From an uncultured Candidatus Saccharibacteria bacterium (GTDB taxonomy: Bacteria; Patescibacteriota; Minisyncoccia; Phycocordibacterales; CSBR16-119), in NCBI GenBank assembly GCA_964589975.1, contig CAZPVH010000003.1, forward strand, positions 5,608 to 69,607: DNA of 64,000 bases, in the 5' to 3' direction. Made by a program: the position numbers and the translations under genes. This document shows, piece after piece, positions 841-58,466 of this stretch. The notes beneath the pieces were generated by a model. The model saw only the letters and a list, made by a program, of their open reading frames with translations, did no database searches and was not told the origin of the DNA. Numbering within the stretch: position 1 is the stretch's first letter; the number at the start of each line of letters is the position of its first letter.

Positions 841-843
841 AAT

Positions 844-1797: not shown

Positions 1798-1799
1798 AA

Positions 1800-2972: not shown

Positions 2973-2975
2973 CGA

Positions 2976-3890: not shown

Positions 3891-3899
3891 AAAGTTTGC

Positions 3900-4931: not shown

Positions 4932-4932
4932 A

Positions 4933-5643: not shown

Positions 5644-5645
5644 AT

Positions 5646-6314: not shown

Positions 6315-6378
6315 AAAATCAAGCCTATTTCTTAAAAACGTAAAGCAAGTATGGGAAGTATAATTTCGCGGTAGACAA

Positions 6379-9739: not shown

Positions 9740-11727
9740 TAGAGATTATCAAGTGATAAGAATGTAATTTTCGGGAATCTGGTTTTCTGGAGCACGACGT
9801 GCGCTTTAACGTCTTGCACGAATTCAATTTCCGGATTCAGGGCTTCGGCTTCGGCGATCTTTGCCTCAGCGGTTTTAAAATCTCCGCCATACATGTAAGC
9901 CAGTGCCTCCATTGCCGGAGTTAGGGGATTTTCTGGAGAGAATTCGGCGCTGCCCGCCAACAGTGCTTTGGCTTTATCGAGCCGCTCATTACCAAGGATT
10001 GTCTCGAACATATAGAGATACGCAAGATTAACACGGGCTCGATAATAATTTGGGCGCAGCTCAATATACTCCTCATATGCTTTCGCATACATTTCCATCT
10101 CCTTCAACGCCTGCGACCTACTTTCAGGGGTAAGCGGCTGATCGCTTCCAAGGCGTGCCATCACCCCCTTGATGAGAGAACCTGAACCAATCCGGAGGCT
10201 TACGAGGCTATGGCCACCTCTTATAGCGTTCTCTATCTTTGCTTCCCTTTCAGCGTTATCACGAGTTTTCATAATCTCTACAAGGTCTTGCTGGCGGCCT
10301 TTTAATGTGAATATTATTTGGGGCACAAATGCTATAAGGAATATAAGAGCGGCCGGAACTATGACCATCTTTTCGTAATTTTTGTTTGTTTCTTCTGTTA
10401 CAACCATCTCTCTCTCGATATATAGTCCGTATCCCAAAAGAACGAATATATAAAAATATGTAACTACGGTCTGGAAAGACGTTTGCATTTGGAGTATCTG
10501 AGCGCAAATCAGGACTACTAGCATTTGAGCTTGCATATCGCTTATCAGTCCCCTTTTTGATGCCCGCACAAAAGTCCGAGCAAGTAAGAAGAGCATCACG
10601 AGCCAAGCAAGGAGGCCCAAGAACCCGACTTCCACCAGAGTATCAATAAAATAATTGTGTGCACGATCGAACCAGATCTCGCCGAGATTCTCTTCAAGGA
10701 ACAGTCGATTATCAAAATTAGATTGGTATGCCAATTCAAAATTCTCCGGACCATATCCGAGTACCGGCCTGTCTTTCACGCTCTCAAAAGCACTTTCCCA
10801 AAGAATTATCCTGGCATCGCTCGAGTTAGCCGAATATTTTTCTTGAACAAAGGACCCCGGGACAAACAAGAGTCCAAGTACCACAACAATGATTCCGCCG
10901 AAAATGCCAGAAAATATTTTCATGGCATCCTTTGACTTTGAGAAACGCAGAATTACATAACGTAATAATACAAATATAACTACGATAAACGCTGTGGCGG
11001 AGCTCGCTTGAGCGTCCCCGAGCAGAAGCGCAGGTTCCGCAAAAACTTTCGCCACACCAACATCGCCGAAAAGTATCCCGGAATTTAAAATTGCAGGATG
11101 AAGAAACTGCAATGCCAAAAGCGGGTATAGCCATTTATTTTTCCCGTTTTTCTCCTGATAAGAATCCAGGATCGCAATCAATGTAACAATGATACCGATG
11201 AGAACGAATGTTCCGGCAAAGGTTGAGTTTCCAAACAAAAACCCTGGCGCAGAGAGGCCTGTTTCGCCGCCGGGTGAAAAAAATATATCGACAAACGAAA
11301 GAAAAGAATAGAAAGCTGATGAAATAACCAGAGAAAAGCCGACGAGGCGCCAGTCTTTATTTTTTAGAAGACCGGACAAAAGATATGCCATGATGACAAG
11401 CGAAATAACCAGGATAGTCCCAGTGCCACGGATTATGTCGCCGAAGAACGAGTTCTCGGCGTTTATACCCAAAAAGGCTGCCAAAATAGAGGTCCCAAGG
11501 ACAGCACATGAAGAACAAAAAAGGATATTGTCTCGGGAAGGCAAGAATGACTTTATATGGCCTTTATACATTTCATAAGCGTAGAAAACGGCAAAAATCA
11601 CGGCAGCCCCAAGAGTATAGAAGGCCTTCGCATTCATAGGGGCATAAAACATCTTGTGAGAGTTCACAAACGGAAACACAAAAATGAATATAGCGGCCAA
11701 TATTCCGACAAACTGGACTCTTTTCAT
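9739..11727 (-). CDS. polytopic membrane protein, O-antigen ligase (Wzy_C)-like domain with C-terminal TPR repeats
   Basis: Many TM segments; central region resembles the O-antigen ligase/PglL family; C-terminal repeats (AKAYEEYIELRPNYYRARVNLAYLYM...) are TPR-like. Confidence 0.65.
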   Translation of the reverse strand: MKRVQFVGILAAIFIFVFPFVNSHKMFYAPMNAKAFYTLGAAVIFAVFYAYEMYKGHIKSFLPSRDNILFCSSCAVLGTSILAAFLGINAENSFFGDIIRGTGTILVISLVIMAYLLSGLLKNKDWRLVGFSLVISSAFYSFLSFVDIFFSPGGETGLSAPGFLFGNSTFAGTFVLIGIIVTLIAILDSYQEKNGKNKWLYPLLALQFLHPAILNSGILFGDVGVAKVFAEPALLLGDAQASSATAFIVVIFVLLRYVILRFSKSKDAMKIFSGIFGGIIVVVLGLLFVPGSFVQEKYSANSSDARIILWESAFESVKDRPVLGYGPENFELAYQSNFDNRLFLEENLGEIWFDRAHNYFIDTLVEVGFLGLLAWLVMLFLLARTFVRASKRGLISDMQAQMLVVLICAQILQMQTSFQTVVTYFYIFVLLGYGLYIEREMVVTEETNKNYEKMVIVPAALIFLIAFVPQIIFTLKGRQQDLVEIMKTRDNAEREAKIENAIRGGHSLVSLRIGSGSLIKGVMARLGSDQPLTPESRSQALKEMEMYAKAYEEYIELRPNYYRARVNLAYLYMFETILGNERLDKAKALLAGSAEFSPENPLTPAMEALAYMYGGDFKTAEAKIAEAEALNPEIEFVQDVKAHVVLQKTRFPKITFLSLDNL

Positions 11728-15343: not shown

Positions 15344-17776
15344 ATGGCAAAGAAAAAATTGGATAATAAAAAGAAACCGGCAAAAGATACGCTGGGTAAA
15401 TCAGAAGTTCAAGAATTCAAAAAAATCTTGGGCGTCCACATAAGCGAAGAGACGCGAAATAGCATCGTCGCGATATCCTTTTTCGTGCTAGCCATACTCT
15501 TTATTCTCTCTGGATTCAACCTGGGCGGCGTCGCCGGCAGATTCATATATAAGAACTTGGTACATATATTAGGCGTTGGCTACATTCTCTTGCCGCTAGT
15601 CCTAATTCTTCTGGGCGCATCTTCTTACAAATCTCTCCGACCATCACTCGCCATAACCCATCTAATAAGCGGACTTCTATTCTTTCTCTCGGGTCTCGGA
15701 CTCATACATATAATAAAGGCCGACGCGGCCGGTGTTGTCGGCAAATTCACTTCTTGGCCGTTTGTAAAGCTTTTCGATGTGTACCTGGCTTTTATTTTGC
15801 TTCTGGCGGTCTTCGGTATTTCAATTATCATCATGTTCGACGCTCGCCCGAGTCTTTCTCGCTTCAAGCAAAGACTTAAAGCGCTCTTTGGTTCAAAGGA
15901 AGACGAATACTATGAGGAAGCCGATGAGGCCGACGAGCCAGAAGAGGGGCCGGCACCAGAGCCTCTACCTCTTCCTGAGGAATCAGAGCCGGAAGTTCAA
16001 CGAGAAGAGCCCCCAAAGGACGCGATGGCTTTTACCGCGGCCTGGAAGTCTACTGGCAAATATGTTCCCCCTCCCCTCTCGCTCCTTCGAAAGAATGATC
16101 AGAAAGCCGTAACAGGAGACATCAAAGCTAATTCGAACATCATCAAACGAACACTCGAGAATTTTGACATCGCTGTCGAGATGGACGAAGTCACAGTTGG
16201 ACCTACCGTGACTCGTTTTGCCCTGAAACCGGCTCAGGGTGTCAGACTTTCGCGAATTACCGCCCTTTCTAACGAGCTTCGCCTCGCGCTTGCCGCTCCG
16301 TCTATCCGTATCCAGGCCCCTATCCCAGGACAGAGTCTTGTTGGCATAGAAGTGCCGAATGTAAACAAAGCGCTCGTTGACCTCCGCAGCCTCCTCTCCA
16401 CCAAAGATTTCAAAGAAAGCTCGAAGCCTCTCCTTGTGGCGCTTGGCCGTAGCGTTTCCGGCAAAGCTGAGTATGGAAATATAGGCAAAATGCCGCACCT
16501 CTTGGTAGCCGGCGCGACTGGATCCGGTAAGTCGGTGACCGTTCACACCCTCATTACAAGTCTTATATACAGGAACGGCCCGGAGGATCTTCGTTTCATT
16601 ATGATCGACCCGAAGCGCGTCGAACTCACTCTATATAACGGCATCCCTCACCTCCTTACTCCGGTTATTACGAACCCAAAGAAGGCTATCCTCTCTCTCA
16701 AGTGGGCGGTCTCTGAAATGGAACGACGCTATGACATACTCGAGAACCATGCTGTCCGTGACATTGACTCATATCACAAGAAATTTAACGAGCAGAAAAA
16801 TCCCGATGATGCTAACGCGATGGAGCGTATGCCGTTTATATTGATCTTCATCGACGAACTTGCCGATATCATGCAGAGCTATCCACGGGAACTCGAGTCC
16901 GGTATCGTCCGCCTAGCGCAGATGTCCCGAGCCGTAGGTATTCACCTTACTCTCTCGACCCAGCGCCCATCAGTCAACGTCATCACCGGCCTCATCAAGG
17001 CAAACGTTCCGACGCGTCTCGCGCTCCAGGTCGCCAGCCAGATCGACTCCAGAACCATCCTCGACGCCGCTGGCGCAGAGAAACTCCTCGGAGCCGGAGA
17101 TATGCTCTTCGCTTCCGGCGAAATGGCCCAGCCGCAGCGTATCCAGGGAGCTTTTATTTCCGAAGACGAGGTCAAGGAAGTCGCCGGATACCTCAAGAAT
17201 CGCTACAAGAATGAGCTGGCTGATGACATCAACCTTTCCGAAGGCTCAATCAGCTCAGATAAAAGTATTTTTGACAGCCAAATAGACGACGGAGACAAAG
17301 ACGAGCTTTTTGCCGAGGCCAAAGCATTGGTAATCAAAGAAAAGAAAGCTTCAACCTCATATATCCAGCGCCGCCTAAAGATCGGTTATTCTCGCGCCGC
17401 CAGAATCCTCGACGAGCTTGAACAAGCGGGTGTTGTAGGTCCAGCCAATGGCGCCAAGCCACGCGATATCCTATCTGACGGAAACGAGGTCGCGGCCCCA
17501 AGACCGGCCGCTACGGCTGTCTTTGCGTCTGTTGCTCCAGAGCCTGCCCGTATTCACACAGTCACTAGAACGCTAGACACAGAAGACGAGGAAGACCTGA
17601 CGGACGATGTAATGGAAGATGCCGACGAAACCCCTTACGAAGAAATTCCGGTCGAAGATGAAGTTGGTGGTAACGAAATTGATGAAAGTTCAGAAATACT
17701 TCCAGAAGACAAGCCGCTTGGTCGGGAAGATGACGAGAATAGCGATAATTCGTATGACGAGAACGATAAATATTAA
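15344..17776 (+). CDS. ftsK: DNA translocase FtsK/SpoIIIE
   Basis: N-terminal TM segments, acidic linker, Walker A LLVAGATGSGKSV, FtsK motor and C-terminal gamma wHTH domain. Confidence 0.9.
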   Translation: MAKKKLDNKKKPAKDTLGKSEVQEFKKILGVHISEETRNSIVAISFFVLAILFILSGFNLGGVAGRFIYKNLVHILGVGYILLPLVLILLGASSYKSLRPSLAITHLISGLLFFLSGLGLIHIIKADAAGVVGKFTSWPFVKLFDVYLAFILLLAVFGISIIIMFDARPSLSRFKQRLKALFGSKEDEYYEEADEADEPEEGPAPEPLPLPEESEPEVQREEPPKDAMAFTAAWKSTGKYVPPPLSLLRKNDQKAVTGDIKANSNIIKRTLENFDIAVEMDEVTVGPTVTRFALKPAQGVRLSRITALSNELRLALAAPSIRIQAPIPGQSLVGIEVPNVNKALVDLRSLLSTKDFKESSKPLLVALGRSVSGKAEYGNIGKMPHLLVAGATGSGKSVTVHTLITSLIYRNGPEDLRFIMIDPKRVELTLYNGIPHLLTPVITNPKKAILSLKWAVSEMERRYDILENHAVRDIDSYHKKFNEQKNPDDANAMERMPFILIFIDELADIMQSYPRELESGIVRLAQMSRAVGIHLTLSTQRPSVNVITGLIKANVPTRLALQVASQIDSRTILDAAGAEKLLGAGDMLFASGEMAQPQRIQGAFISEDEVKEVAGYLKNRYKNELADDINLSEGSISSDKSIFDSQIDDGDKDELFAEAKALVIKEKKASTSYIQRRLKIGYSRAARILDELEQAGVVGPANGAKPRDILSDGNEVAAPRPAATAVFASVAPEPARIHTVTRTLDTEDEEDLTDDVMEDADETPYEEIPVEDEVGGNEIDESSEILPEDKPLGREDDENSDNSYDENDKY

Positions 17777-18158
17777 AAAACTCCTAAGCACCAGCCTCTT
17801 TGTGGGACTTTTCGTCTTCATCATCGGCTATTCCCTATTTCAAACCAAGGCAATAGCTAGAGGCGTTGATCTGTCAATCGATAATATCTACGATGGCCAA
17901 GTTTTTAGAGGTGAAATGCTTGCGCTTTCTGGCACAGCTGTACATGCAACTCATCTATCGGTCAATGACAAAGAAATTGTGGTAGATGAAAATAACGCCT
18001 TTTCAGAAGAATTGGTCCTCTCCGCTGGTTATAATATAATTACAGTAGAAGCGAGCGATAAATTCAATAAGCAAACCGTTAAAACTTATCGAGTTCTATA
18101 CGAAGTACCTCACGAAAACACCGGCGAAGATGTAGCAACATTACCAGATAAAGAATAA
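17754..18158 (+). CDS. small membrane-anchored hypothetical protein
   Basis: ORF track extends to 17619, overlapping ftsK; the internal Met at 17754 ([11 protein letters not shown]..., then a TM helix) is the more plausible start. The start is uncertain. Confidence 0.4.
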
Positions 18159-18162
18159 AAAT

Positions 18163-19239
18163 ATGCCACTCAAAAAGAAAAAGGCGGAAAAAGCAGAAAA
18201 GATTGTCGAGGAAAAAGACGAAGTTGTAAGCAAAGAAAGCACTGCTTCCGGAATTGAGAGCACAATCAAAGCCATCCAGACAAAATTCGGTGAAGGCTCT
18301 ATCATGAAGCTTGGCGACAGTCCGAAAGTTGGCGTAGGCGCTATTTCTACCGGATCGCTTGGTCTCGACGCCGCTCTCGGTATCGGCGGACTTCCAAAGG
18401 GTCGCATCATCGAAATATTCGGTCCGGAAAGTTCAGGTAAAACAACACTCGCCCTTCATGTCATATCCGAATCTCAAAAACGCGGCGGCATTTGTGCCTT
18501 TATCGACGCCGAGCACGCCATGGATCCTGATTACTCAAAGAAGCTCGGTGTGAAGACCGAGGAGCTCCTAATTTCCCAGCCGGATAACGGCGAGCAGGCA
18601 CTTGAAATCGCTGAGTCGCTTGTCCGATCAGGTAAGATCGACGTTATTGTCGTCGACTCCGTCGCCGCGCTCACCCCAAAGGACGAAATTGAGGGCGACA
18701 TGGGTTCGCACCAAGTTGGCAAACAAGCTCGCCTCATGTCCCAAGCCATGCGAAAACTCACTGCCCTTGTTTCCCGCACCAAGACAATCATCATTTTCAT
18801 CAACCAGATCCGCATGCAAATCGGCGTCATGTTCGGCAACCCGGAGACGACAACCGGCGGTAAAGCTCTCAAGTTCTACTCTTCCGTCCGGCTTGATATT
18901 CGCCGCATCGCTCAGATAAAGAAAGGCGAAGAGGTTGTGGGATCAAGAACAAGGGTCAAGGTGGTAAAGAATAAAGTCGCGGCTCCGTTTAAGCAAACTG
19001 AATTCGATATAATCTACGGCGAGGGTATCTCGATCGAGGGCGAACTCCTGGCGCTCGGCGAACGCATGGGGCTCATCAAGAAGTCCGGGGCGGCATACAG
19101 CTATACGCCGAAAGACGGCGACGAGGTGAAACTCGGCCGCGGCTACGACGCTACTCGCCAATTCCTCCGAGACAAAGAAAACAAAAAAGTTCGAGACACG
19201 ATACTTAAGGAAGTAACGAACGGATTAAAGGCAATCTAA
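18163..19239 (+). CDS. recA: recombinase RecA
   Basis: [13 protein letters not shown] Walker A; full-length RecA-like sequence. Confidence 0.95.
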
Positions 19240-19279
19240 ATACCAAATAAAAGAACCCCGCACTTAATTCGGGGTCCTT

Positions 19280-19822
19280 TTATTTTATGAGTTCCAGGAG
19301 TTTATAGACTAGCTGTTCTGGGTCTTCTTCGAAGACTATCGGCACATGACTCTTTTTGCCTTCGAGAGATAGGAGCCTGACCGCCTGATCCACTTCCCAA
19401 TCGCCAGTAAGGACTCCGACTGGCTTCCCCGCACGAAGCGCAATATCAAACTCGTGAAGACCCTCCATCTTCCCACAGCCGAGGATGACTGCGTCGGCGG
19501 ACTTTGACATAAACATATTCGCGCCGGCAGGTCCAAAGCCGGTATAGATGATCACATCGCCATGGTCGGTATCAAGCCTATAGCCATCGACATGCTCTTC
19601 TCTGCTCCCAGCCGGAGAAAAATAAATAACGTCGCCTCCTGCCGCTCGCGCGCCCATGGAAGCGAACATCGGAAAGCCGTGATGCGCGCCGGTCAGGACA
19701 AAGTGACCAGTCTTGGCGATCTTTCGGCCAATACGCTTAGCCTTGTCGAGAGTGTCGAGTGGAACGTTAGCTGGCTCAATCGCGCCAGCGATACAAATTT
19801 TGTACTTCTGCTTTTTTATCAC
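19280..19822 (-). CDS. TIGR00725/LOG(SLOG)-family Rossmann-fold nucleotide-binding protein
   Basis: KICIAGA...FVLTGAHHGFPMFASMGARAAGG...ILGCG resembles the LOG/DprA-like SLOG superfamily. Confidence 0.6.
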   Translation of the reverse strand: MIKKQKYKICIAGAIEPANVPLDTLDKAKRIGRKIAKTGHFVLTGAHHGFPMFASMGARAAGGDVIYFSPAGSREEHVDGYRLDTDHGDVIIYTGFGPAGANMFMSKSADAVILGCGKMEGLHEFDIALRAGKPVGVLTGDWEVDQAVRLLSLEGKKSHVPIVFEEDPEQLVYKLLELIK

Positions 19823-19874
19823 AATTTGATTATATCAAAGCTTTTGACGGTTAGCTGTTAGCTTCTAGTGGGAA

Positions 19875-19900
19875 AACGCCGCGCCGTAAGGCGCGGCGTT
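19875..19900 (-). terminator. intrinsic terminator following element A
   Basis: aacgccgcgccgtaaggcgcggcgtt perfect hairpin followed by a UUUUCCC tract on the minus strand. Confidence 0.65.
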
Positions 19901-19910
19901 TCATTCCCCT

Positions 19911-20001
19911 CTCCGCGAAGCAGAATATTTCTTTTTTGAGTCCGAGGACCTAGTGCGAAGACACGATCCCGCAGGACGAGAAAAAGAAATGTTCTGCGGA
20001 G
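19911..20001. repeat. conserved-core stem-loop element, copy A (core 19942-19975)
   Basis: Core CCGAGGACCTAGtgcgaagacaCGATCCCGCAGG inside an imperfect ~20-bp inverted repeat; it abuts the stop of the minus-strand RNase gene and precedes the hairpin terminator at 19875-19900. Confidence 0.7.
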
Positions 20002-21396
20002 CTAAAACTCCAGTTCTACTACCTGATTCTGCTCCGGCACGATAGCCGTAACGCCCAAATTATCGTGAAGTTTCTGCGCCAAGAACATTGAAACGCGTGG
20101 TTCACCCATGACCACAAATGCTTTTTTGAGCGTGTCTTTAGTGCTTTCGATGAATTTAACCAAGTGAAACGAATCTTTGTGTCCGGAGAATCCTTGGATC
20201 ATCACGACTTTCGCTCGAACATGCACGCGCTCGAACATAATCATAACCTGGTCTCGGCCTTCTTGGAGCATGCGTCCTAGAGTTCCCGGCACCTGATAGC
20301 CAGTGAGGAGGAGCGTCGCATTCGGATCCCCCAAATAATTCTTTTCATGATGAAGAATCCTTCCGCCAGAAGACATCCCAGAGCCAGCCATGATGATCTT
20401 TGGACCCGGAACTTTTAAAATATTTATTGACTCTTGAGTAATTTCCGTCTCCTTGAGCCCCGGGAAGCTAAAAATGTTGTCTCCCTGACTGATCTGCATC
20501 CGGACTGTTTCTTTAAGGAGATTTAGATGCCTTCTAAATACATCTGTTATACGAATTGCGAGCGGAGAATCAAGGAATATCTTTATTTGTGGAATCTGCT
20601 TCGATTCGACGAAATTATTGAGTTCGTAGAGAAATTCTTGGGTGCGTTCAAGTGAAAAGATCGGCACCATCAAAACGCCCTTCTTGTTATATGTTTCGAG
20701 TATGACTTTTTTCAAATTCTCTTCCCTCTCTGCGCGCTGCTCGTGATTTCTGTCGCCATAAACCGACTCCATGACAATATATTTGGCGTCGGTAATTTCT
20801 TCCGTATCAGCCAAAAGTGGCGACGGCGAGTTTCCAAGGTCCCCTGTAAAGACAATCTTCGAGCCATTGTATGTTATTTCAGCCATGACAGACCCGAGGA
20901 TATGTCCGGCGTCTTTGAAAAATACCGACAATGGCCCGAGGTGAAAATCCTCGTGATACTCATGCGTTTCCCACATATGATCAATCTTGGAGAGCACAGA
21001 TGTTCCGTACATTTCGCCGAGATGATACTTCGGCGCGGATTTCGAGTTTGCCAAAATATGCGCGGTGTCTGCAAGCATGACAGCCGTCAGATCGCGTGTA
21101 GCCGCGGTTCCGATAATTCTGCCCTTGAAGCCCTCATAAACAAGCTTAGGAATGCGGCCGATGTGATCTTCGTGAGCGTGCGTGACGATCAGTGCATCGA
21201 TATCTGCCGGATTATATGGGAATGGCTCCCAGTTATCGAATTCGGCCAGATGCTCACCCTGAATAAGGCCACAGTCCACAAGAAGACGAAACGGCTTCTC
21301 CCCCGATTCCGGCATCGTTTCGAGCAAAAAATTTGCGCCGGTCACCCAGCCCGCGCCGCCCGCAAAAGTAAGTTTTAATTTCTTAACGATGGTCAT
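20002..21396 (-). CDS. MBL-fold metallo-hydrolase, beta-CASP family ribonuclease (RNase J/CPSF-like)
   Basis: HxHxDH motif (VTHAHEDHIG), followed by beta-CASP-like and RNA-specificity regions. Confidence 0.8.
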   Translation of the reverse strand: MTIVKKLKLTFAGGAGWVTGANFLLETMPESGEKPFRLLVDCGLIQGEHLAEFDNWEPFPYNPADIDALIVTHAHEDHIGRIPKLVYEGFKGRIIGTAATRDLTAVMLADTAHILANSKSAPKYHLGEMYGTSVLSKIDHMWETHEYHEDFHLGPLSVFFKDAGHILGSVMAEITYNGSKIVFTGDLGNSPSPLLADTEEITDAKYIVMESVYGDRNHEQRAEREENLKKVILETYNKKGVLMVPIFSLERTQEFLYELNNFVESKQIPQIKIFLDSPLAIRITDVFRRHLNLLKETVRMQISQGDNIFSFPGLKETEITQESINILKVPGPKIIMAGSGMSSGGRILHHEKNYLGDPNATLLLTGYQVPGTLGRMLQEGRDQVMIMFERVHVRAKVVMIQGFSGHKDSFHLVKFIESTKDTLKKAFVVMGEPRVSMFLAQKLHDNLGVTAIVPEQNQVVELEF

Positions 21397-21802
21397 AATT
21401 ATTTGATTTCAGATAATAATAGAACATGGCGAGCATGCTACCTAGCCAACCGAATAATATGTCGCTCAGTGAATCCTTAGGTGTAGCCAGAGCTCCTTCG
21501 ATATTGAAAAGGTGCTGGACAGAGAATTCCAATATTTCCCAAAGCACAGCAATTAAAACGAATATGAAACTATTCATGAGGAGCGCCTTCCAGAAATGAT
21601 TGTCTTCGCGCCAGATACCATAAGTTTTGTAGAAGACGAAGACCAAAAAGAATGTGACGACGATGCCGCCTAGAAAGTGCATGACCATATCGAACCAAAA
21701 GAAGCTCTGATACCAAAAGAAAAAGCTTGCCAGGGCGTTCAAAACGAATACGGCAAAAATCGAAAGGCCGAACTTCCGGAAAAAAGATTTGCGGATAGAC
21801 AT
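21383..21802 (-). CDS. hypothetical multi-pass membrane protein
   Basis: Four predicted TM helices; no recognised family. Confidence 0.5.
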   Translation of the reverse strand: MSIRKSFFRKFGLSIFAVFVLNALASFFFWYQSFFWFDMVMHFLGGIVVTFFLVFVFYKTYGIWREDNHFWKALLMNSFIFVLIAVLWEILEFSVQHLFNIEGALATPKDSLSDILFGWLGSMLAMFYYYLKSNNYDHR

Positions 21803-22183
21803 GGCTTAATTCTACTAGGCTTCGAACAAAAAGAAAAACCCTTCTGATGAAGAGTATCTCTTTACGGCTATCCATGATTATCCTAGCTTTTTTAAAAAAG
21901 TGGGTGCGATGCGGTGTGGACCACGGTCCGCCCCGACGGCTCGCTCCCCTAGGATTAATGTTCTAGATAATTCGGGATAACCGTAACCACATTTTACCAG
22001 ATTTATAGAAATGCAAATACTAGACAAAAATTGATTAGAGAGTATAGTTTGGGAAAATAAAAAGCATGCTAGAGCAAGCATTCATTTACATAGGCATAGG
22101 TCTGCTCGTCTCACTACTAATAGTGAGGTTCGCATATCTATCGGTGATGGACATACCAAAACCCAAGAAGTTCTTCTGAAGCA

Positions 22184-22206
22184 AAACCCCCGTTGAACGG
22201 GGGCCT
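22184..22206 (-). terminator. intrinsic terminator downstream of ndk (bidirectional hairpin)
   Basis: aaacccccgttgaacgggggcc hairpin; U-tract on the minus strand after the stem. Confidence 0.6.
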
Positions 22207-22224
22207 TCGCTTTTATACTTTTAT

Positions 22225-22707
22225 TTACTGAGGAAAGTGATCGGCGTAAACGAAGGCCTGATCAATCTTTTCATACGAGAATAATTCGTCCTCACCGAAG
22301 AATCGGTTTACCTCATCAATCCCATTTTGAACAGAGTCTGATGCGTGAACAACATTGGACTGAATAGACATGGCCAAATCTCCACGAATGGTGCCTCCTG
22401 GAGCCTCAAATGACTTAGTAGGACCAACTATGATTCGCACAGCATCAACAGCACCAATACCAGAAAGTGCCATAACAACAACCGGAGCAGACTTCATGAA
22501 AGTCTTTATGCCGGCAAAGAAAGGTTTGTCTTTTATGTGCTTATAGTGATCCTCGAGAAGCACGTCTTCGAGCGTCAGCATCTTCATGCCGTTGATCTTG
22601 AGACCCTTTCGCTCGAATCGGCCAATGATCTCGCCTACCAGGTTACGCTGGATGGCGTCAGGCTTCATGATGATAAGGACTTTCTCGTTTTTCGGATGAG
22701 TATTCAT
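22225..22707 (-). CDS. ndk: nucleoside-diphosphate kinase
   Basis: NDK fold with active-site region NVVHASDS. Confidence 0.9.
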   Translation of the reverse strand: MNTHPKNEKVLIIMKPDAIQRNLVGEIIGRFERKGLKINGMKMLTLEDVLLEDHYKHIKDKPFFAGIKTFMKSAPVVVMALSGIGAVDAVRIIVGPTKSFEAPGGTIRGDLAMSIQSNVVHASDSVQNGIDEVNRFFGEDELFSYEKIDQAFVYADHFPQ

Positions 22708-22817
22708 AATTATTGATTGAATTTTAATAGCTGTATATTAGCATTTGATACGTGATTATATTTATTGACAAAATGAAAATAATTGGTAATATCAGATAAA
22801 CACAAACCCATAGCACC

Positions 22818-23318
22818 ATGAAGAAAATTTTTGCTCTCACGTCACTGTGTGTCCTTTTGGCCCACAGCGGCTTCTGTCAAAGCGGCATCAAGTATCCCGA
22901 CTGCAAGACTGGCGGGGCGGGCGGCTCGCTTATGGTATACGACGACAAGCTCGACGGGACGCTGGGCCATCATCCTTGGATGACCCTCCAAGAAGGCAGT
23001 TCCTGCGGCGAGGTCCTCATGGTCGTTGAGGGTGAGGTTGATTCCTGCGCGGTCTATACCTTGAACGATGTTGCCGGACGAACAGCAACGAACGGACGAA
23101 CCCTCCTCTGGGAAGGCAACGCTTACGACAAGGGCACGTTCATGACGCTCTTCCGAGGCATTGTGCCAAAGGACTATGTCCGCATCGAACAAGAAGTGAT
23201 GACGGACGGAATCTTCGGCGGGAAAAATCCGCCGAAAGCCATCCACCTCATCATCGGCACGGCCAAAGGAGAGTCGGTGATGGTCGTTTCCGCCTGCAAG
23301 TGCATGAGCGAAAACTAA
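22818..23318 (+). CDS. hypothetical secreted Cys-containing protein (GC-rich gene)
   Basis: Signal peptide MKKIFALTSLCVLLAHSGFCQSG; local GC content clearly above neighbours. Confidence 0.55.
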   Translation: MKKIFALTSLCVLLAHSGFCQSGIKYPDCKTGGAGGSLMVYDDKLDGTLGHHPWMTLQEGSSCGEVLMVVEGEVDSCAVYTLNDVAGRTATNGRTLLWEGNAYDKGTFMTLFRGIVPKDYVRIEQEVMTDGIFGGKNPPKAIHLIIGTAKGESVMVVSACKCMSEN

Positions 23319-23347
23319 GACAAGAGCGCTGTTCGAAAGAACGGCGC

Positions 23348-23399
23348 TCTTTTATATTTTTATAAACTTATCCATCACTTCCTTCTCTACTTCATCTCT
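23348..23399. repeat. direct repeat, copy 1: duplicated 3' end and terminator tail of the 909-aa ATPase gene
   Basis: 23362-23399 matches 24620-24657 at 37 of 38 positions, and the preceding T-tracts also match. On the minus strand it would encode ...RDEVEKEVMDKFIKI* versus the ATPase C-terminus ...RDEVEKEVMDKFMKI*. Confidence 0.7.
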
Positions 23400-23489
23400 T
23401 TGCCAGCCTCATTAATGAAGGTAGATTTAGTAATCATTGACAAATTACCAACATTGTGCTACCATATACGCAGACCAAAAACGAAACAC

Positions 23490-23975
23490 ATGAAAACCTT
23501 CACAACCATACTGTTGACAGTCTTCTGTCTCTTCACAAGTCGCGCCACGGCCCAAACGGGCTCGATCAGATCCCTCTTGGAAAAGAACGGTTTTGAGTGG
23601 CAATCAAGCCTTGCCCAACCAAGCGATTTCGACAACGAGAGCGACCTGGGCGCACAAACCGAGGTTACGAAACTGAAACGAGAAGAAGATGAGAAAGTGA
23701 CGACAACCGGCGTCCTGAGTTTAATCGATACGCTCAATTTCACACCGCTCAGCCTGAAAGAGTCACTTCAATACCGTGAGGACACCTACATACCCGACAT
23801 CATTGATGTTTATCACGAAAGAACGGTTGTGTTTTTCGGTTCAAGTGTTCAGGTTAGAGGGAAAACCTACTACCCAATACTACGTTGGCAGGAAGGAAGC
23901 AAGAAAGGAATAGTCACGATGACAGACAATCCTTTCTGCTGCAAAGAAGAGGTGGACATTGTAGTGAAACACTGA
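23490..23975 (+). CDS. hypothetical secreted protein
   Basis: Start chosen at the internal Met giving signal peptide MKTFTTILLTVFCLFTSRATAQ; the ORF track extends upstream to 23400. Confidence 0.5.
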   Translation: MKTFTTILLTVFCLFTSRATAQTGSIRSLLEKNGFEWQSSLAQPSDFDNESDLGAQTEVTKLKREEDEKVTTTGVLSLIDTLNFTPLSLKESLQYREDTYIPDIIDVYHERTVVFFGSSVQVRGKTYYPILRWQEGSKKGIVTMTDNPFCCKEEVDIVVKH

Positions 23976-24103
23976 AGAATGCGCGCCAGCCACGACAACG
24001 TGGCTGGCGTTTACTTTTTATCTATTGTTTTACACTTGCGTAAGCGGCCGGACTACACTACCATTGTAGTTATTAATAAGAGAAAGACGCTTTTTAAAAA
24101 TAT

Positions 24104-24559
24104 ATGAATACTAAAATCGTAGGGGGTCTATTGGCTCTAGTGCTAATTGTTCAAGTGGTGCTGGTCGGAGCAGGAACAAAGATGTCGGAAAAGATTAGCA
24201 GTATAAATGTTCAACAAGCTTCTATAATTTCTAAGGTTGATCAGGTGGCAGCGCTTGGCGCAAGCGGGGTCCTCAATCCTGGACCAACACCTGGAGGAAT
24301 TACAATCATAACCTATTATCTTTACAATAGGTGCACAGTTACAACCTATTCAGATGCTGGCACCCCTAGCACGTCTCAGGGCTATACGGTTAGTACTCCA
24401 AGCGGTCAGGGCTGTGACACATCTGGACCTCAATCTGCAACGGCAGGCACAGGCACAGGTATAACAAATAATATTGTTCCCCTTAGAGACGGCGGGGTAA
24501 GCATAAGAAATTCATCTGACATAGTAAGTACTGAAATAAAGTTTATTAAGTCACGTTAA
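24104..24559 (+). CDS. hypothetical membrane-anchored Thr/Ser/Gly-rich protein
   Basis: N-terminal TM/signal anchor MNTKIVGGLLALVLIVQVVLVGAG. Confidence 0.5.
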   Translation: MNTKIVGGLLALVLIVQVVLVGAGTKMSEKISSINVQQASIISKVDQVAALGASGVLNPGPTPGGITIITYYLYNRCTVTTYSDAGTPSTSQGYTVSTPSGQGCDTSGPQSATAGTGTGITNNIVPLRDGGVSIRNSSDIVSTEIKFIKSR

Positions 24560-24565
24560 AAGAAA

Positions 24566-24608
24566 TACATATAAAAGACCTCTTTATCATAAAAGAGGTC
24601 TTTTATTT
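24566..24608. terminator. bidirectional hairpin terminator between gene 24104-24559 and the ATPase gene
   Basis: aaaagacctctttatcataaaagaggtctttt perfect hairpin with T/A tracts on both sides. Confidence 0.6.
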
Positions 24609-24657
24609 TTTATATCTTCATAAACTTATCCATCACTTCCTTCTCTACCTCATCTCT
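24599..24657. repeat. direct repeat, copy 2: authentic 3' end of the ATPase gene
   Basis: Partner of 23348-23399; the two copies bracket a ~1.2-kb cassette containing the two small secreted-protein genes at 23490-24559. Confidence 0.7.
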
Positions 24658-27339
24658 CGGTCGTCCATACTTGAGGAATGAAAGTTCTTTGAGAGAGTCG
24701 ACAATATCTGGATTTCCTGCTGGTAAGTCTTGTGTACGAATATTGAATGGCTTAACTGGCGTACCGTCGACGAGCATGGACACATACGCATTACGGTTAT
24801 CTAGCTTCATGATGTCTTGAACGGTAAAGACTGGGTCCAAACGCTTCTGCAAAATCTCCGCATCTTCGGAACTAATACGGAATATTGCCATCGAACCAAC
24901 GTTACCGAGTACGGCATTTCGAATATCGTCCGAGAGTTGTGACAAATACTGGTGGGCAACATTAAGACCGAGCTTGTATTTTCGTGCTTCAGAGAGAATC
25001 GAAGAAATAGATGGGGTGGTGAAATTCTGAAACTCGTCTATGTAGAGATAAAACGGTGGAAAATTTGCGCCGTGCGAGTCGGCACGAGAAAGTGCTGCCA
25101 TTTGGATCTTTCCTACCAGAATGAGACCTAAGAGGTTTGCATTGATATCTCCAAGTCTTCCCTTCGAAAGGTTTACCAGTAAGATTTTCTTGTTATCAAT
25201 AATCTCGCGGAAATTAAAGCTTGATTTCTCCTGAGCGATAATTGGACGCATAATTTCGTTAGAAATAAATGTGTCGAATTTGGACGTAATATACGGAACG
25301 AAGTTCTCTAGTCCTTGCTCACCTGTAGTCGCTTCAGCGGTTTTCCAGAATTGCTTGATGATTGGGTTCGTACAACGTTCTAGCTTCATATCACGGAATT
25401 TCTTGTCAGAGAGAACACGACCAATTTCAAGAATAGTATTACCTGTGGACGGATCAGACATCACAAGTCCGGCAGAATTCTTGAAATACTGCTCGAAAAG
25501 TGGTCCACCGGCGGTCTTCATATCAAAGAGCTGACTAAAAATACCGAGGAGTTCGTTAATCACAAGCGTCTTCTGTTCCGGACGCTCTGGATCAAACTCG
25601 AGCATATTGAGGCCCATTGGCCGCGCAGTTGAGGCTGGATCGAAATAAATGACGTCATCAATGCGATGTTTTGGGATATAAGAAAGGATTTTCTGGATGT
25701 CGGATCCGTGTGGATCTATGTAGCAAACACCGTCACCCCGCTCGATATCCTGACGAATCATGTTCATCATAATACCGGTCTTACCAGTTCCAGTCTGGCC
25801 GATAACATAAAAATGCCTCATGCGATCGAGCTCCTGGAGGTAAATATCGGTATCAACTCCGCGATGCGTGTTGATACCGATTTGAACGCCGCCACCAACC
25901 ATATTGAGCGGCGCAGACGCGGAACCTGCTTTTGACTCTTTGAGCTCTGGTGAAGACGCAAGACCTACCGGGAAATGCACGAGCGTCGAGAGTTCTTTGA
26001 AATTGAGCGGCAAGGCCGAAGCTTCGGTCGGCAGGCGGAATGAAAATGAATGGAGAAACTGATCCAAATGCTTGTCGTCGACCTTTTTAAACTTGAGACT
26101 GTTTGAGCTTGGCTTCTCGAACTGAGAGAACGCCGATTCAATGTTTGCAATTATCTCGCCTGTTCGAATGGCGCTATCTGACGAAGCCACGACACGGATA
26201 TTCGCCAGCATGATGGTCGACTTGATCTTCTCGGTAATATTTTCGACAGCTTTGTCGTCGATATCCTTTTCTTCCTTCTCTTCTGTCTTCTTGGGTCCTT
26301 TCCAAAGCATTGTTCCAAAGCTCTTTAGCTCTTTCTTTACGTCGCCAAACTCATCCAATATATGCTTAAGTTTTTCGCCTTTTTTCACCTTATCAAGATA
26401 TCCGGAGAATTTCTTAATGTATCTGTCCCCCGCCGGCATGATGACGAACTGGAGCGCCGCGCCTTCTTTCGTTTTATCAAGCTTCGAGAAGGCGTTCAGG
26501 ATCGTATTCATCGGATCATGATCAAACTCATCGTGAGTTTTGAGTGGAAACACCTCATGATCGCCAAACTCTGCCGATGCCGCCATAATCGAGCCGCCTG
26601 AGTTAAAGACATTGTAATCATTCGTAACTTCGGTGATCTTTGCATTCTTGTAAAATGACAGTATCTGTTTTTCAAGCAGAGTTTTTCGATCTTTTGGAAT
26701 GGAGACATAAAAAACGATTTCCGGTGAATCATGTGATACGGCAATCTCAATTGTGAAATATTGCTTATATTTATTATTCTCCCCATTCGATATGGTCTGC
26801 ATACCGGCATAAAACTGTTCCATAGCGGAAAGAAATTCTTTGAAAGTTTTTTCTTTCTCTTCTGAAGCTGGCAGAGTTACTTCAAAAAGCGCGAGGTTGA
26901 GAGATTTCCATTCTGGCGAACTCTCGGAGAGCCCGGGGACTTGATGAGAAGTGTGGAGGAACTGAATCAAGAATCTGTGAAAGTCGTCCTCAAGATGCGG
27001 ATTATGCATACGGGAAACGATATCCATGGTGTTTTTTATACCGTGCTCTAGGAGTAGGCCATAAAGCTCTTCGATTTGACTATCATGTTCTTCTGGCTTG
27101 AGGGCCAGGACCATGCTTTCGGCCTCTTTCTCTGGCACACGGTAGCTTTCATGAAGCACTTCGGCTGAGTCGGCTTTTTTGTACGCGGAAAGCGTCTCAT
27201 GAGTCACTTCTTCGCGAGATTTTTCAAGCTTAGCACCAGCGTTCACTCTCTCTTGTTCGGCAACTTTCTCGCGCAAATAAGCGAGCTCCTCTTCAGGAGT
27301 CTTGAACGCGCCTTTTTCCATGATCTGAGCCCCTTCCAT
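24610..27339 (-). CDS. large P-loop ATPase of the FtsK/HerA/TraG(VirD4) superfamily with ~430-aa N-terminal domain of unknown function
   Basis: Walker A GQTGTGKTG followed by DPHGS; Walker B LYIDEFQNF; downstream AHQYLSQL motif as in type-IV coupling/HerA-like ATPases; no TM segments. Confidence 0.7.
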   Translation of the reverse strand: MEGAQIMEKGAFKTPEEELAYLREKVAEQERVNAGAKLEKSREEVTHETLSAYKKADSAEVLHESYRVPEKEAESMVLALKPEEHDSQIEELYGLLLEHGIKNTMDIVSRMHNPHLEDDFHRFLIQFLHTSHQVPGLSESSPEWKSLNLALFEVTLPASEEKEKTFKEFLSAMEQFYAGMQTISNGENNKYKQYFTIEIAVSHDSPEIVFYVSIPKDRKTLLEKQILSFYKNAKITEVTNDYNVFNSGGSIMAASAEFGDHEVFPLKTHDEFDHDPMNTILNAFSKLDKTKEGAALQFVIMPAGDRYIKKFSGYLDKVKKGEKLKHILDEFGDVKKELKSFGTMLWKGPKKTEEKEEKDIDDKAVENITEKIKSTIMLANIRVVASSDSAIRTGEIIANIESAFSQFEKPSSNSLKFKKVDDKHLDQFLHSFSFRLPTEASALPLNFKELSTLVHFPVGLASSPELKESKAGSASAPLNMVGGGVQIGINTHRGVDTDIYLQELDRMRHFYVIGQTGTGKTGIMMNMIRQDIERGDGVCYIDPHGSDIQKILSYIPKHRIDDVIYFDPASTARPMGLNMLEFDPERPEQKTLVINELLGIFSQLFDMKTAGGPLFEQYFKNSAGLVMSDPSTGNTILEIGRVLSDKKFRDMKLERCTNPIIKQFWKTAEATTGEQGLENFVPYITSKFDTFISNEIMRPIIAQEKSSFNFREIIDNKKILLVNLSKGRLGDINANLLGLILVGKIQMAALSRADSHGANFPPFYLYIDEFQNFTTPSISSILSEARKYKLGLNVAHQYLSQLSDDIRNAVLGNVGSMAIFRISSEDAEILQKRLDPVFTVQDIMKLDNRNAYVSMLVDGTPVKPFNIRTQDLPAGNPDIVDSLKELSFLKYGRPRDEVEKEVMDKFMKI

Positions 27340-27558: not shown

Positions 27559-27795
27559 TTACGATTTCGACAAGCTTTCAGGGGAATACCATTCGGGAAC
27601 AGTACTCCAATTGTCGTCCATAAGCACAGGAACGTAGCGCTTATCCATCGGCGTTTTTGTCTCAACCAGCGAGACAGCCACGACCCGACCTTTGCGATGG
27701 CCCACTTTCACAAGTTCGCCAGCTGTGAATTCTCCGAACTTGAAAGCCATTTCTTGAACCTTAACGCCAGTAGCATTTTCCGTGGCTGTTGCCAT
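27559..27795 (-). CDS. hypothetical small protein
   Basis: 78-aa ORF followed by a hairpin terminator; no recognised family and not IF-1-like. Confidence 0.4.
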   Translation of the reverse strand: MATATENATGVKVQEMAFKFGEFTAGELVKVGHRKGRVVAVSLVETKTPMDKRYVPVLMDDNWSTVPEWYSPESLSKS

Positions 27796-29244: not shown

Positions 29245-29274
29245 AATGCCCCTCCGCAAGGAGGGGCATTTTCT
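29245..29274 (-). terminator. intrinsic terminator following element B (downstream of rpsR)
   Basis: aaaatgcccctccgcaaggaggggcatttt perfect hairpin with flanking U-tract. Confidence 0.65.
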
Positions 29275-29290
29275 TAAATCATCTTTTGGT

Positions 29291-29370
29291 GGAGCAACAT
29301 GCCCATTTTAGAATCCGAGGACCTAGCGTAGCGATCCCGCAGGATTATAAAATGGGCAAATTGCGGAGCG
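29291..29370. repeat. conserved-core stem-loop element, copy B (core 29315-29343)
   Basis: Core CCGAGGACCTAGcgtagCGATCCCGCAGG inside an inverted repeat; it lies between the rpsR stop (29375) and the hairpin terminator at 29245-29274. Confidence 0.7.
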
Positions 29371-29374
29371 TTCG

Positions 29375-29575
29375 CTATTCAGCGACGAATGGAAGGAGTC
29401 CCATGATCCTGGCGCGTTTGACGGCGAGAGAGACTTTCTTCTGATTCTTTGAAGAGAGCTTGGTCTTTCGCTTACCCATGAGGCGTGCAGAAGCATCCAA
29501 GAACTGCTTCAGAATCGCAGTGTCCTTGTAGTCGATATGCTTTATATTGTTCGATGAGAAATAATCTTGCTGCAT
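29375..29575 (-). CDS. rpsR: 30S ribosomal protein S18
   Basis: S18 signature; rpsF-ssb-rpsR context. Confidence 0.85.
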   Translation of the reverse strand: MQQDYFSSNNIKHIDYKDTAILKQFLDASARLMGKRKTKLSSKNQKKVSLAVKRARIMGLLPFVAE

Positions 29576-37984: not shown

Positions 37985-38569
37985 CTACATGAGCTGTGTT
38001 GCGGCAAGTGATTTATTGAGCTCTTTGATAATAGATTTTTTCGTCGAAGTTAGCCGAGCGAGCGTCTCAGTGGTGAACGGACTCTTCGCAAGTCCGCCGA
38101 GCGCGTCGGCGTCGCCCCAATACCCGAGCCCTGAAAGAATTTTTAGAACAAGGAGAGCCTCAATACTCTCCATTTCATCCTGCTTCGGATGAGTATTCGA
38201 GGTGAATTCAAAAGCTGCTACCAACTCGTCGAAAAGGTGCTCGTGCGGTTCTTCTTCCGGCGCAAGCTTGGCGATTAGCTGGAGTCCGCGGATACGCGAA
38301 CTTGTCGAGAGGCTCTTTTTAGAATTCAAATCATGAATCGGCCTGGCGGAAACAAGCCGCCAGAAAGTCTTGCCTTTCACAAGGCTCGCATCGATGTATT
38401 TGAAATCCTGAACGAAGTAACGGAGGCGGGATTCCATTTTCCGGATTCCCATGGCTTTCGCGCGAATAACGCCAAAGTCTTTTGTAAACAGATGAAATGT
38501 CTTATCCGCCTCCCCGGTGTTTCGAGTCGACATCACAAACGCTTCAGTGTGATAAATAGTGTGAGACAT
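37985..38569 (-). CDS. recO: DNA repair protein RecO
   Basis: N-terminal OB-fold region resembles RecO (TEAFVMSTRNTGEADKTFHLFTKDFGVIRAKAMG). Confidence 0.65.
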   Translation of the reverse strand: MSHTIYHTEAFVMSTRNTGEADKTFHLFTKDFGVIRAKAMGIRKMESRLRYFVQDFKYIDASLVKGKTFWRLVSARPIHDLNSKKSLSTSSRIRGLQLIAKLAPEEEPHEHLFDELVAAFEFTSNTHPKQDEMESIEALLVLKILSGLGYWGDADALGGLAKSPFTTETLARLTSTKKSIIKELNKSLAATQLM

Positions 38570-55956: not shown

Positions 55957-56043
55957 CAAAAGAAAAAACACATTTCCGAATCCCGAGGACCTAGTGACGT
56001 TGTCACGATCCCGCAGGGTGAGGAAATGTGTTTTTTCTTTTGC
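55957..56043. repeat. conserved-core stem-loop element, copy C (core 55983-56017)
   Basis: Core CCGAGGACCTAGtgacgttgtcaCGATCCCGCAGG inside a perfect 21-bp inverted repeat (gcaaaagaaaaaacacatttc / gaaatgtgttttttcttttgc); between convergent dfrA and rplK stops. Confidence 0.75.
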
Positions 56044-56046
56044 TTC

Positions 56047-58281: not shown

Positions 58282-58340
58282 GAGCGTAGGTGTTGTTTGT
58301 CTTTAATCTACTCCTCCCCCGCTGCTTTTGCAAGCATGAG

Positions 58341-58364: not shown

Positions 58365-58377
58365 CCTCTTTCTCTAA

Positions 58378-58462: not shown

Positions 58463-58466
58463 ACTT

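Follow-up and report, generated by a model that had tools for sequence, protein, structure and literature searches.

In the stretch of 64,000 nucleotides (nt) from an uncultured Candidatus Saccharibacteria bacterium analysed here (the window, coordinates 1-64000), the interval between the genes for a VirD4-like ATPase and for nucleoside diphosphate kinase (NDK) contains a second, displaced copy of the 3' end of the ATPase gene. This stub appears to be part of an old relic which also occurs in related lineages, and homologous recombination with genuine ATPase ends probably overwrites it repeatedly, the last of these events having probably added a small gene of foreign composition together with its terminator. 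Three small genes lie between ATPase and NDK on the strand opposite to both and are referred to as sp1, sp2 and tm3. Copy A is the upstream stub (23350-23399) and copy B the genuine ATPase 3' end (24608-24657); the stop-codon side of the stub is called the fresh or proximal block, and 23400-23436 the distal block. L-numbered names (L001, L053, L084, L164 etc.) designate loci or lineages of relatives compared with the window, and "window", where used as the name of a lineage, stands for that of the source genome itself.

Both copies form an ungapped direct repeat with an offset of 1258, in which 47 of 50 nt are identical, and this is the strongest direct repeat of the whole window. The 38-nt core (23362-23399 and 24620-24657) matches at 37 positions and occurs exactly twice in the 64 kb, while 0 occurrences are expected (100 dinucleotide shuffles). 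Copy B, on the minus strand, comprises the last 15 codons of the ATPase (...RDEVEKEVMDKFMKI*), the TAA stop and 2 nt. Copy A likewise consists of a stop, 15 codons and 2 nt and reads ...RDEVEKEVMDKFIKI* on the minus strand. At each of the three mismatches (23358, 23361 and 23391 in copy A) copy A has T and copy B has C, resulting in two synonymous changes and one Met>Ile exchange relative to the gene. The first-pass annotation of this DNA had described a duplicated gene terminus whose upstream copy encodes the ATPase tail and stop on the minus strand, and our analysis confirms this. Its 37/38 core match holds as well, but the outer coordinates 23348 and 24599 require a 6-nt indel in the bases of the T tract.

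The reading frame of copy A has no start codon, and two in-frame stops are found three codons further upstream. Closed and without a start, copy A is therefore a non-coding relic. A micro-ORF (open reading frame) for the C-terminal tail of the ATPase was rejected, as the frame is stopped in the window and a TAA directly precedes the stub frame in the related lineage L173. The stop-codon side of each copy abuts its own terminator hairpin. Terminator A (23322-23351, plus strand), a hairpin with a 13-bp stem and a T tract, abuts the stop codon of the stub, whereas terminator B (24571-24606) is a perfect 15-bp inverted repeat with T tracts on both strands, common to tm3 and the ATPase. The two terminators are unrelated in sequence. 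Terminator A is positioned as it would be in a donor genome with sp1 and the ATPase in convergent orientation around a common terminator (sp1 -> terminator <- ATPase). Simple tandem duplication was discarded because the flanks of the copies differ on both sides (terminator A versus B; sp2 promoter versus the remainder of the ATPase gene).

The window derives from a metagenome-assembled contig, and a chimeric join or a repeat-induced mis-assembly might produce such a picture. However, an independent Logan contig (SRR16481186) is 100% identical to window positions 16013-26810, i.e. over 10.8 kb spanning both copies, the longest exact run common to the copies is just 29 nt, and the corresponding arrangement in L164 is backed by contigs of two other runs, L166 (stub) and L165 (cassette and gene end). 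We regard an assembly artefact as practically negligible.

Further stubs were searched by Smith-Waterman alignment with shuffle controls and by nhmmer, with seven genuine ATPase ends as the basis of the profile. Three lineages were found to have an ATPase-end stub immediately before the sp2 promoter, namely the window (47/50 to its own gene, E 5e-12 in nhmmer), L164/L166 (32/38 to its own gene, E 5e-5; score 26 versus a null maximum of 13.5 in 500 shuffles) and L173 (about 62 nt, E 7e-18), where it still encodes YGRPRDEVEKEVMDKFMKI*. In L167, L171 and L172, which carry sp2 in the same slot, neither method detected a stub, and about 150 other loci searched for a duplicated ATPase end gave only chance matches of 9-19 nt. 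The promoter region of the three stub-less lineages is differently diverged: promoter and untranslated region share 83% identity with the window in L164 and 79% in L173, compared to 49-58% in the stub-less lineages. Promoter and sp2 coding sequence (CDS) are discordant in their identity to the window, with values of 79% and 65% for L173 and of 49% and 77% for L171, respectively.

The sequence beyond copy A, up to the -35 box of the sp2 promoter (23400-23436, minus strand, 37 nt), is homologous to 39 nt at the same position in L173 (global score 11 versus a null of -7.2 +/- 3.5, a score reached by 0 of 5000 shuffles), and this L173 interval is similar to what follows at this point in real ATPase genes (p 0.002-0.014). 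The nhmmer alignment extends to profile position 71 in the window (23353-23421) and to position 76 in L173. L164 fits the same layout if a deletion of about 31 nt is assumed (local match p 0.02). We interpret 23400-23436, from nhmmer and its homology to L173, as the decayed continuation of the ATPase-derived sequence, and the three stubs would accordingly be descendants of one ancestral relic of about 87 nt abutting the sp2 promoter. The 23399/23400 edge, given as the edge of the duplication in the first-pass annotation, falls inside this relic, as ATPase-derived sequence seems to continue to about 23436, and would therefore be the boundary of a recombination tract and not an insertion junction.

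Alternatively, every stub might have been made de novo in its own lineage by homology-facilitated illegitimate recombination (HFIR), with no shared relic involved. HFIR is known from naturally transformable bacteria, and the part of PMC5361080 on which we draw invokes it for comparable stub arrays; moreover, the lengths of high identity differ between the stubs, each of which resembles its own gene. It would then be difficult to understand why the window and L173 share the sequence between stub and -35 box at nearly the same spacing and why L164 fits with one deletion, and three separate joints upstream of the same promoter are improbable. Independent formation is in our opinion quite unlikely, while HFIR is a good candidate for a single founding event.

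To estimate the age of the stubs, the four-fold degenerate sites of the ATPase served as neutral divergence gauge. These sites are near saturation between all lineages (26-42% identical). For the window and L164 they are 42% identical, which corresponds to a Jukes-Cantor distance of 1.10, and a neutral relic dating from the ancestor of the two is expected to be about 58% identical to the present gene end. The value for the window stub is 94%. The probability of finding at least 47/50 matches in a neutral relic is about 1e-8 (window), and that of at least 32/38 about 5e-4 (L164). Within the window relic, the proximal part matches its own gene at 47 of 50 positions and the distal part in 22 of 42 columns (Fisher p = 5e-6). 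At sites where the genes of the window and L164 differ, each stub shows the state of its own lineage (4/4 in the window, 3/3 in L164). The fresh tracts have lengths of 38 nt in L164, 50 nt in the window and 62 nt in L173. These values indicate that the proximal blocks are probably of far more recent date than the relic and that each lineage renewed its block on its own, with a tract end different from those of the others.

In each stub lineage the refreshed block starts at the stop-codon side, and its neighbour is a different one each time. The left flank consists of terminator A and sp1 in the window and of the start of another minus-strand gene in L173. In L164 it is the conserved NDK-upstream motif, the stub being located 31 nt upstream of the NDK start, which corresponds to the natural ATPase-NDK adjacency.

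Main rival to an import of DNA from other strains is gene conversion within one genome, by which the resident ATPase end, at a distance of 1.2 kb, would periodically correct the ancestral stub, sp1 and terminator A being a separate insertion. The copies are close to each other and in direct orientation, RecA and RecO are present, and each stub carries the diagnostic states of its own lineage. Gene conversion explains the contrast between fresh and old sequence equally well and makes unseen donor strains unnecessary. It needs homology on two sides, however, and the homology of the copies ends 2 nt past the stop, terminators A and B being unrelated, while the distal side is only about 50% identical. 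It further requires an independent insertion of sp1 and terminator A within 0-2 nt of the stub stop, and it accounts neither for the left flanks, which differ in all three lineages, nor for the conflicting identities of upstream block and CDS. Gene conversion alone therefore receives a minor, though not a trivial, share of our confidence.

The conservation of the stub in three lineages is unexpectedly good and might point to selection on its sequence, which would then either have a regulatory or antisense role, by virtue of its match to the 3' end of the ATPase mRNA, or belong to the NDK promoter. The position of the L164 stub close to the NDK start would be compatible with the latter, and read-through from sp1 would yield an RNA antisense to the ATPase 3' end. 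In the window, however, sp1 lies between stub and NDK, and the conserved motif upstream of NDK is retained there. Furthermore, three cassette lineages have no stub, length and position of the stub vary, no Rfam family matches it, and one selected sequence would not follow the synonymous changes of each gene. Selection on the stub is thus hardly credible.

The stub is located in an interval with a history of gene turnover. The ATPase (24610-27339, minus strand, 909 aa) is a conserved core gene and one boundary of this interval. According to Pfam it contains the domains TrwB_AAD_bind (25.5 bits, cut-off 20.5) and TraG-D_C (23.2 bits, cut-off 22); with these narrow margins above the thresholds it can be classified as a putative VirD4/TraG-type coupling protein. 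Its orthologs carry DUF8128, are found in 160 of 160 loci returned by two scans and are spread throughout Paceibacteria/Nomurabacteria-type Patescibacteria. The C-terminal peptide is kept in all 8 near relatives, and the last 19 residues are invariant in the 9 sequences compared. Homologues of VirD4-like type IV coupling proteins abound in Patescibacteria, but only 148 of the 5,713 detected ones are encoded near virB4 (PMC12102498). A functional tie between the ATPase and the neighbouring secreted proteins would be speculation.

NDK (22225-22707, minus strand; Pfam NDK, E 1.6e-45), a core gene as well, forms the other edge. It directly follows the ATPase in most relatives, and the order ADK-MAP-ATPase-NDK-membrane protein-MBL is conserved and co-directional there. 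We measured the distance between ATPase stop and NDK start in 128 relatives carrying both genes. It is shorter than 150 bp in 73 of them, 150-500 bp in 8, 500-900 bp in 20 and at least 900 bp in 27 (maximum 5221), i.e. the interval is occupied (0.15-5.2 kb) in 55 relatives. In L084 the ATPase stop is only 79 bp away from the NDK start, which represents an empty site. The 83 cargo ORFs of at least 100 aa fall into 48 clusters, of which 42 are singletons. These data make the ATPase-NDK interval a true accessory-gene hot spot, and the suggestion of a recombination hot spot in the first-pass annotation is well supported by the empty-site alleles.

In a neighbour-joining tree of the ATPase, the window belongs to a seven-lineage group with 100% support and is the sister of L164 (100% bootstrap, 90% amino acid identity). 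Other members of the group differ in the content of the interval, which is empty in L084, filled with other cargo in L053 and with a 262-bp non-coding element in L001. L053 (L053:12410-15756) is one of the two closest relatives in the genome collection (ATPase 78-86%, NDK 97% identity). Its hot spot holds three different genes (192, 693 and 182 aa), co-directional with the ATPase and apparently coding for membrane-anchored or secreted proteins, and there is no ATPase-end stub.

The genes sp2 and tm3 are old residents of the slot. The sp2 gene (23490-23975, plus strand) encodes a secreted 161-aa protein with a signal peptide, a member of a small conserved family; its promoter (23437-23465, plus strand; TTGACA-17-TACCAT with TG) is nearly identical in L164 and L173, and a terminator-like hairpin follows at 23983-24010 (plus strand). 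The product of tm3 (24104-24559, plus strand) has 151 aa, with a hydrophobic helix at its N-terminus and a body rich in Thr, Ser and Gly. The two genes and their terminator, which is bidirectional, were found as they had been annotated initially. The sp2-tm3 pair is located between NDK and ATPase in the same orientation in L164, L167 and L171, and the partial contigs L165, L166, L168-L170, L172 and L173 are consistent with a resident pair, L172 and L173 showing sp2 in the slot. By alignment, homologs share 54-74% (sp2) and 60-74% (tm3) identity. tm3 always accompanies sp2, downstream of it and convergent with the ATPase, and homologs of both were found in the ATPase-NDK slot only. The nucleotide identity of the cassette roughly tracks that of the ATPase. 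Judged by these comparisons, sp2-tm3 is an old resident in a small clade of at least 6 diverged lineages.

None of sp1, sp2 and tm3 gave a tblastn match (E<=1e-5) in the loci from the ATPase-ortholog scans, and no Pfam family and no toxin or immunity domain was detected in any of them. The AlphaFold2 (AF2) model of sp2 (pLDDT 76) has no fold match in the PDB, and that of tm3 (pLDDT 37) is unusable. In this low-confidence tm3 model, beta strands come after a long helix at the N-terminus, which makes it loosely pilin-like; there is no prepilin motif. The GC content at third codon positions (GC3) of tm3 is 33.6% (z -2.1), which is unusually low despite its long-term residence.

The gene sp1 (22818-23318, plus strand) encodes a 166-aa signal-peptide protein and is preceded by a promoter-like site (22765-22792, plus strand; TTGACA-16-TAATAT with TG) in a block absent from all relatives. 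According to the alignment, this window-specific insertion begins just past the conserved NDK-upstream motif. With a GC content of 55.7% (z 2.4) and a GC3 of 70% (z 2.6; window mean 50%), sp1 has the highest values of the 56 window genes. A search of 5.8 billion clusters returned only sp1 itself, and an exhaustive HMMER search of 1.84 billion representatives gave three remote relatives, all of them secreted proteins, with 26-36% identity. The best of these (L174:507-965) is located in an unrelated context adjoining a UvrD helicase. L174 comes from sample ERZ4208449, which also yielded L167. The relatives suggest a rare, wandering family of small secreted proteins, and sp1 looks like a recent, compositionally foreign, near-ORFan arrival and thus the newest cargo. 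The first-pass annotation had regarded sp2-tm3 as the inserted piece; this pair, however, resides in at least 6 lineages, and the compositionally foreign gene is sp1, which lies outside the interval considered at that time.

Duplication of the gene terminus had also been read as a possible footprint of site-specific integration. We therefore considered sp2-tm3 as a mobilisable cassette with an attP mimicking the ATPase 3' end and a recombinase encoded elsewhere. In three lineages the cassette lies between direct repeats of the gene terminus, of which the cassette-proximal one belongs to the intact gene, and the visible portion of the genome amounts to only 64 kb. Empty-site alleles are present, although they are to be expected under every rival explanation, too. 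As proposed in the first-pass annotation, we compared the locus with those of relatives and observed, besides the empty sites, that stub and gene end bracket the same cassette in two other lineages. On the other hand, no Pfam family of integrases, transposases, recombinases or resolvases was found among the approximately 60 ORFs of the window, in agreement with the initial statement that no integrase is present, and the Pfam tables of the syntenic relatives L083, L164 and L167 contain no integrase, transposase or resolvase either. No att-like structure was seen at the locus, and the scans for Rfam families and tRNAs gave no tRNA or Rfam RNA gene as possible integration target. The repeats do not seem to have the constant core with fixed boundaries typical of att sites, as their length varies (38, 50 and 62 nt) and decayed ATPase-derived sequence extends beyond the core. 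Three lineages have the cassette at the same place without a stub, and cassette identity broadly follows host identity. The cassette was never seen at another site: the 38-nt repeat core and sp2 had no matches in viral contigs, and the locus had none in plasmids. Site-specific integration at this locus is unlikely, and we would assign it only a very small probability.

Two further classes of mobile elements were rejected. An integron cassette carries an attC site, an imperfect palindrome, at its end and is adjacent to the IntI integrase with attI. At this locus there is no integrase, the only palindromes are ordinary terminators, and the cassette genes have their own promoter. Transposons and insertion sequences leave short identical target duplications (about 2-14 bp) and have terminal inverted repeats and a transposase. 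The repeat described here is imperfect and comprises 50 nt (87 ancestrally), there are no terminal inverted repeats at 23400 / 24607, and no transposase was found.

We therefore turn to homologous recombination, the reading we favour, for which direction, donor and mechanism of the single events are what we infer from the observations described so far. The relic would have arisen in an ancestor of at least three lineages, when a convergent sp2-tm3 pair took up its position between ATPase and NDK together with its terminator and a complete ATPase end. What had been the gene end before would thereby have been displaced and have stayed on the NDK side, against the sp2 promoter. A one-sided homologous and illegitimate, HFIR-like joint is the simplest candidate for this founding event. 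Since then, the relic and the DNA following it would be collinear with the ATPase end and the downstream DNA of cassette-less relatives, so that homologous recombination could overwrite the relic from the stop-codon side. DNA taken up from related strains would most likely be the source; recombination would enter from the NDK side and stop at the point where the donor DNA is no longer similar to the relic. Such an exchange would import a selected, and hence fresh-looking, ATPase end plus the downstream cargo of the donor.

In the last event in the window, the stub would have been replaced up to 23399, and sp1 with terminator A would have come from a strain carrying sp1 convergent to the ATPase. 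As a result, new cargo would have been stacked beside the resident sp2-tm3 instead of replacing it. This course of events would explain the young blocks of different length, the lineage-specific synonymous states and the different neighbours at the stop side. Terminator A would be found 0-2 nt from the stub stop as in the convergent sp1/ATPase pair of the donor, and the foreign sp1 could be added without loss of sp2-tm3 because an exchange from the NDK side ends inside the relic. Import of the cassette into an sp1-type strain would yield the same recombinant equally well. RecA and RecO are encoded in the window, and in Saccharibacteria, which possess natural competence, incoming DNA is integrated by homologous recombination (PMC10633639).

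Two earlier working models were abandoned. The first, a recent insertion of sp2-tm3 into the ATPase end, is at variance with the residence of the pair in other lineages. The second started from a spacer without a stub, which would have received sp1, terminator A and a 50-nt stub through an illegitimate joint at 23399/23400; it fell with the stubs in L164 and L173 and with the homology between the sequence right of 23399 and the continuation of the L173 stub.

Several points weigh against recombination with genuine ATPase ends of other strains. In model bacteria, stretches of only about 40-60 nt support homologous exchange with low efficiency. Among about 170 loci no donor context was found for the left flanks of the stubs. 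Exact-sequence look-ups of the window ATPase, NDK, sp1, sp2 and tm3 returned only window-identical contigs and no strain-level variants; as no conspecific strain with a different allele was found, neither donor nor direction of any event has been observed. The ATPase tree has a weak backbone (44-47% bootstrap), so that the stub may be ancestral to all lineages with the cassette, or the upstream block may have passed from one lineage to another. Moreover, the window and L164 are sister lineages, for which two independent refresh events are less parsimonious than in unrelated ones. The ATPase end of L173 (GCA_020049755.1) lies off its 1.27-kb contig, and the freshness of this stub is deduced only from its intact coding and its likeness to the genes of other lineages. 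Finally, the distal block of the window is not significantly ATPase-like taken alone (p 0.16), and direct comparisons of 23400-23436 with ATPase ends (p 0.16-0.34) or with L164 (p 0.19) were not significant either. Its derivation from the ATPase follows by transitivity, as it is homologous to the L173 interval, which itself is ATPase-like.

A more far-reaching possibility, which we consider doubtful, is that the stub is a maintained landing pad making sp2-tm3 a mobile cassette independent of recombinases. Two arms homologous to the invariant end of a universal core gene would then allow insertion into any related genome by double homologous recombination after DNA uptake, without displacing resident cargo, and loss by repeat-mediated deletion would be possible. 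Refreshing of the stub would in this case be a signature of cycles of insertion and loss in naturally competent Patescibacteria.

Variable sites are not restricted to the ATPase-NDK interval. L164 differs from the window at two further spots in the neighbourhood of the hot spot: it has three extra genes (L164:5461-7126, one of them Hypoth_Ymh) between the LDcluster4 and MBL/beta-CASP genes (window ~19670-20002), and a 247-aa gene between ATPase and MAP (L164:14128-14871), where the window (27559-27795) has a 78-aa ORF only. Furthermore, a repeated intergenic element of about 110-130 nt is present in four copies in the window (~19870-20010, ~29270-29400, ~55960-56060 and ~58330-58470). It contains the invariant cores CCGAGGACCTAG and CGATCCCGCAG, followed by TGCGGAGC, which is able to pair with CCCGCAG, and two of the four copies are preceded by a GC-rich hairpin. 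A fifth copy fills the 262-bp ATPase-NDK gap of L001 (L001:12737-12995) and is thus located in the hot spot, too. The element has no Rfam match and could be a clade-specific element of the repetitive extragenic palindrome (REP) or miniature inverted-repeat transposable element (MITE) type or a small RNA.

More distant from the hot spot, a large cluster for cell-surface glycans extends from 58 to 11727. It includes several GT1/GT2/GT4 glycosyltransferases, FkbM and other methyltransferases, WbqC, a PIG-L deacetylase, Polysacc_synt_2 and a Wzy_C O-antigen-ligase-like protein. At 38569-41952 (minus strand) the window encodes a 1127-aa class-I aminoacyl-tRNA synthetase (tRNA-synt_1, Anticodon_1), probably the isoleucyl enzyme (IleRS), with a full His_Phos_1 domain (residues 494-657, E 2.7e-37) within the catalytic region, an unusual fusion or insertion. 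Despite many translation genes, the whole 64 kb contain no tRNA gene (ARAGORN) and no Rfam family at gathering score.

Patescibacteria have tiny genomes and are mostly uncultured, and gene gain is poorly documented in these organisms. The locus provides a base-level footprint of accessory-gene turnover between core genes without mobile-element machinery. It suggests that homologous exchange may reach patches of homology of only about 40-60 nt, and that a leftover gene end can let new cargo stack instead of swap. Presence and length of the stub and identity of its left flank might serve as a small marker for strain-resolved metagenomics. In addition, the locus draws attention to sp1, sp2 and tm3 as clade-restricted secreted or membrane proteins beside a VirD4-like ATPase. 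Current understanding is not overturned by it; we see a clean example and not a new principle.

Chromosomal hot spots of horizontal gene transfer are intervals between core genes which gather variable accessory genes across a clade. The ATPase-NDK interval resembles them in its 55 occupied loci out of 128 and in the predominance of singletons (42 of 48) among the cargo clusters. Beyond this, the refreshed gene-end stub shows how cargo can be added and not replaced. Islands and prophages integrating into the 3' ends of tRNA or protein genes leave an attL/attR duplication. As in such cases, terminus repeats bracket the insert, the gene is intact by means of a replacement end, and relatives have empty sites. 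In contrast to them, no integrase was detected, the repeat length is variable, a decayed extension continues beyond the core, and the 1.2-kb insert is without mobility genes and was never seen elsewhere.

The closest analogues are the Rhs, contact-dependent inhibition (CDI) and type VI secretion system (T6SS) effector loci, for which displaced 3'-end stubs (known as C-terminal displacement), orphan modules and the immunity-gene arrays of Vibrio cholerae are described in the part of PMC5361080 on which we draw, and to which the following comparison refers. For these stub arrays, HFIR and ordinary homologous recombination without an integrase have been proposed, and HFIR in natural transformation is known from Acinetobacter, S. 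pneumoniae and P. stutzeri (references 41, 42 and 47 of PMC5361080). In these arrays the conserved gene stays put while DNA is added to its 3' end. The previous end thereby moves downstream and persists as a stub without function, whose homology to the gene can serve later recombination, and successive events stack cargo. Our locus likewise has a non-functional copy of the gene end beyond a newer insert, with homology retained. It differs in that the displaced and the new end encode the same invariant C-terminus, without a swap of toxin tips, and that the cargo consists of convergent small secreted or membrane proteins without toxin or immunity domains. The stub is tiny (50-90 nt), and the host gene is a VirD4-like ATPase of Patescibacteria. 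Refreshing of a stub across species-level divergence, as it appears here, is not mentioned in that part of PMC5361080. By analogy, the locus seems to work like the Rhs/CDI/T6SS arrays, but it is not a polymorphic-toxin locus.

With respect to HFIR itself, a one-sided anchor in a core gene and an illegitimate joint would be the most economical route to the founding duplication, whereas the later refresh events need only ordinary homologous exchange ending at the edge of homology. The region of the founding joint has decayed. Compared with these systems, the locus is a known kind of footprint in a new setting, a gene-end relic at a core-gene hot spot which is probably refreshed by recombination.

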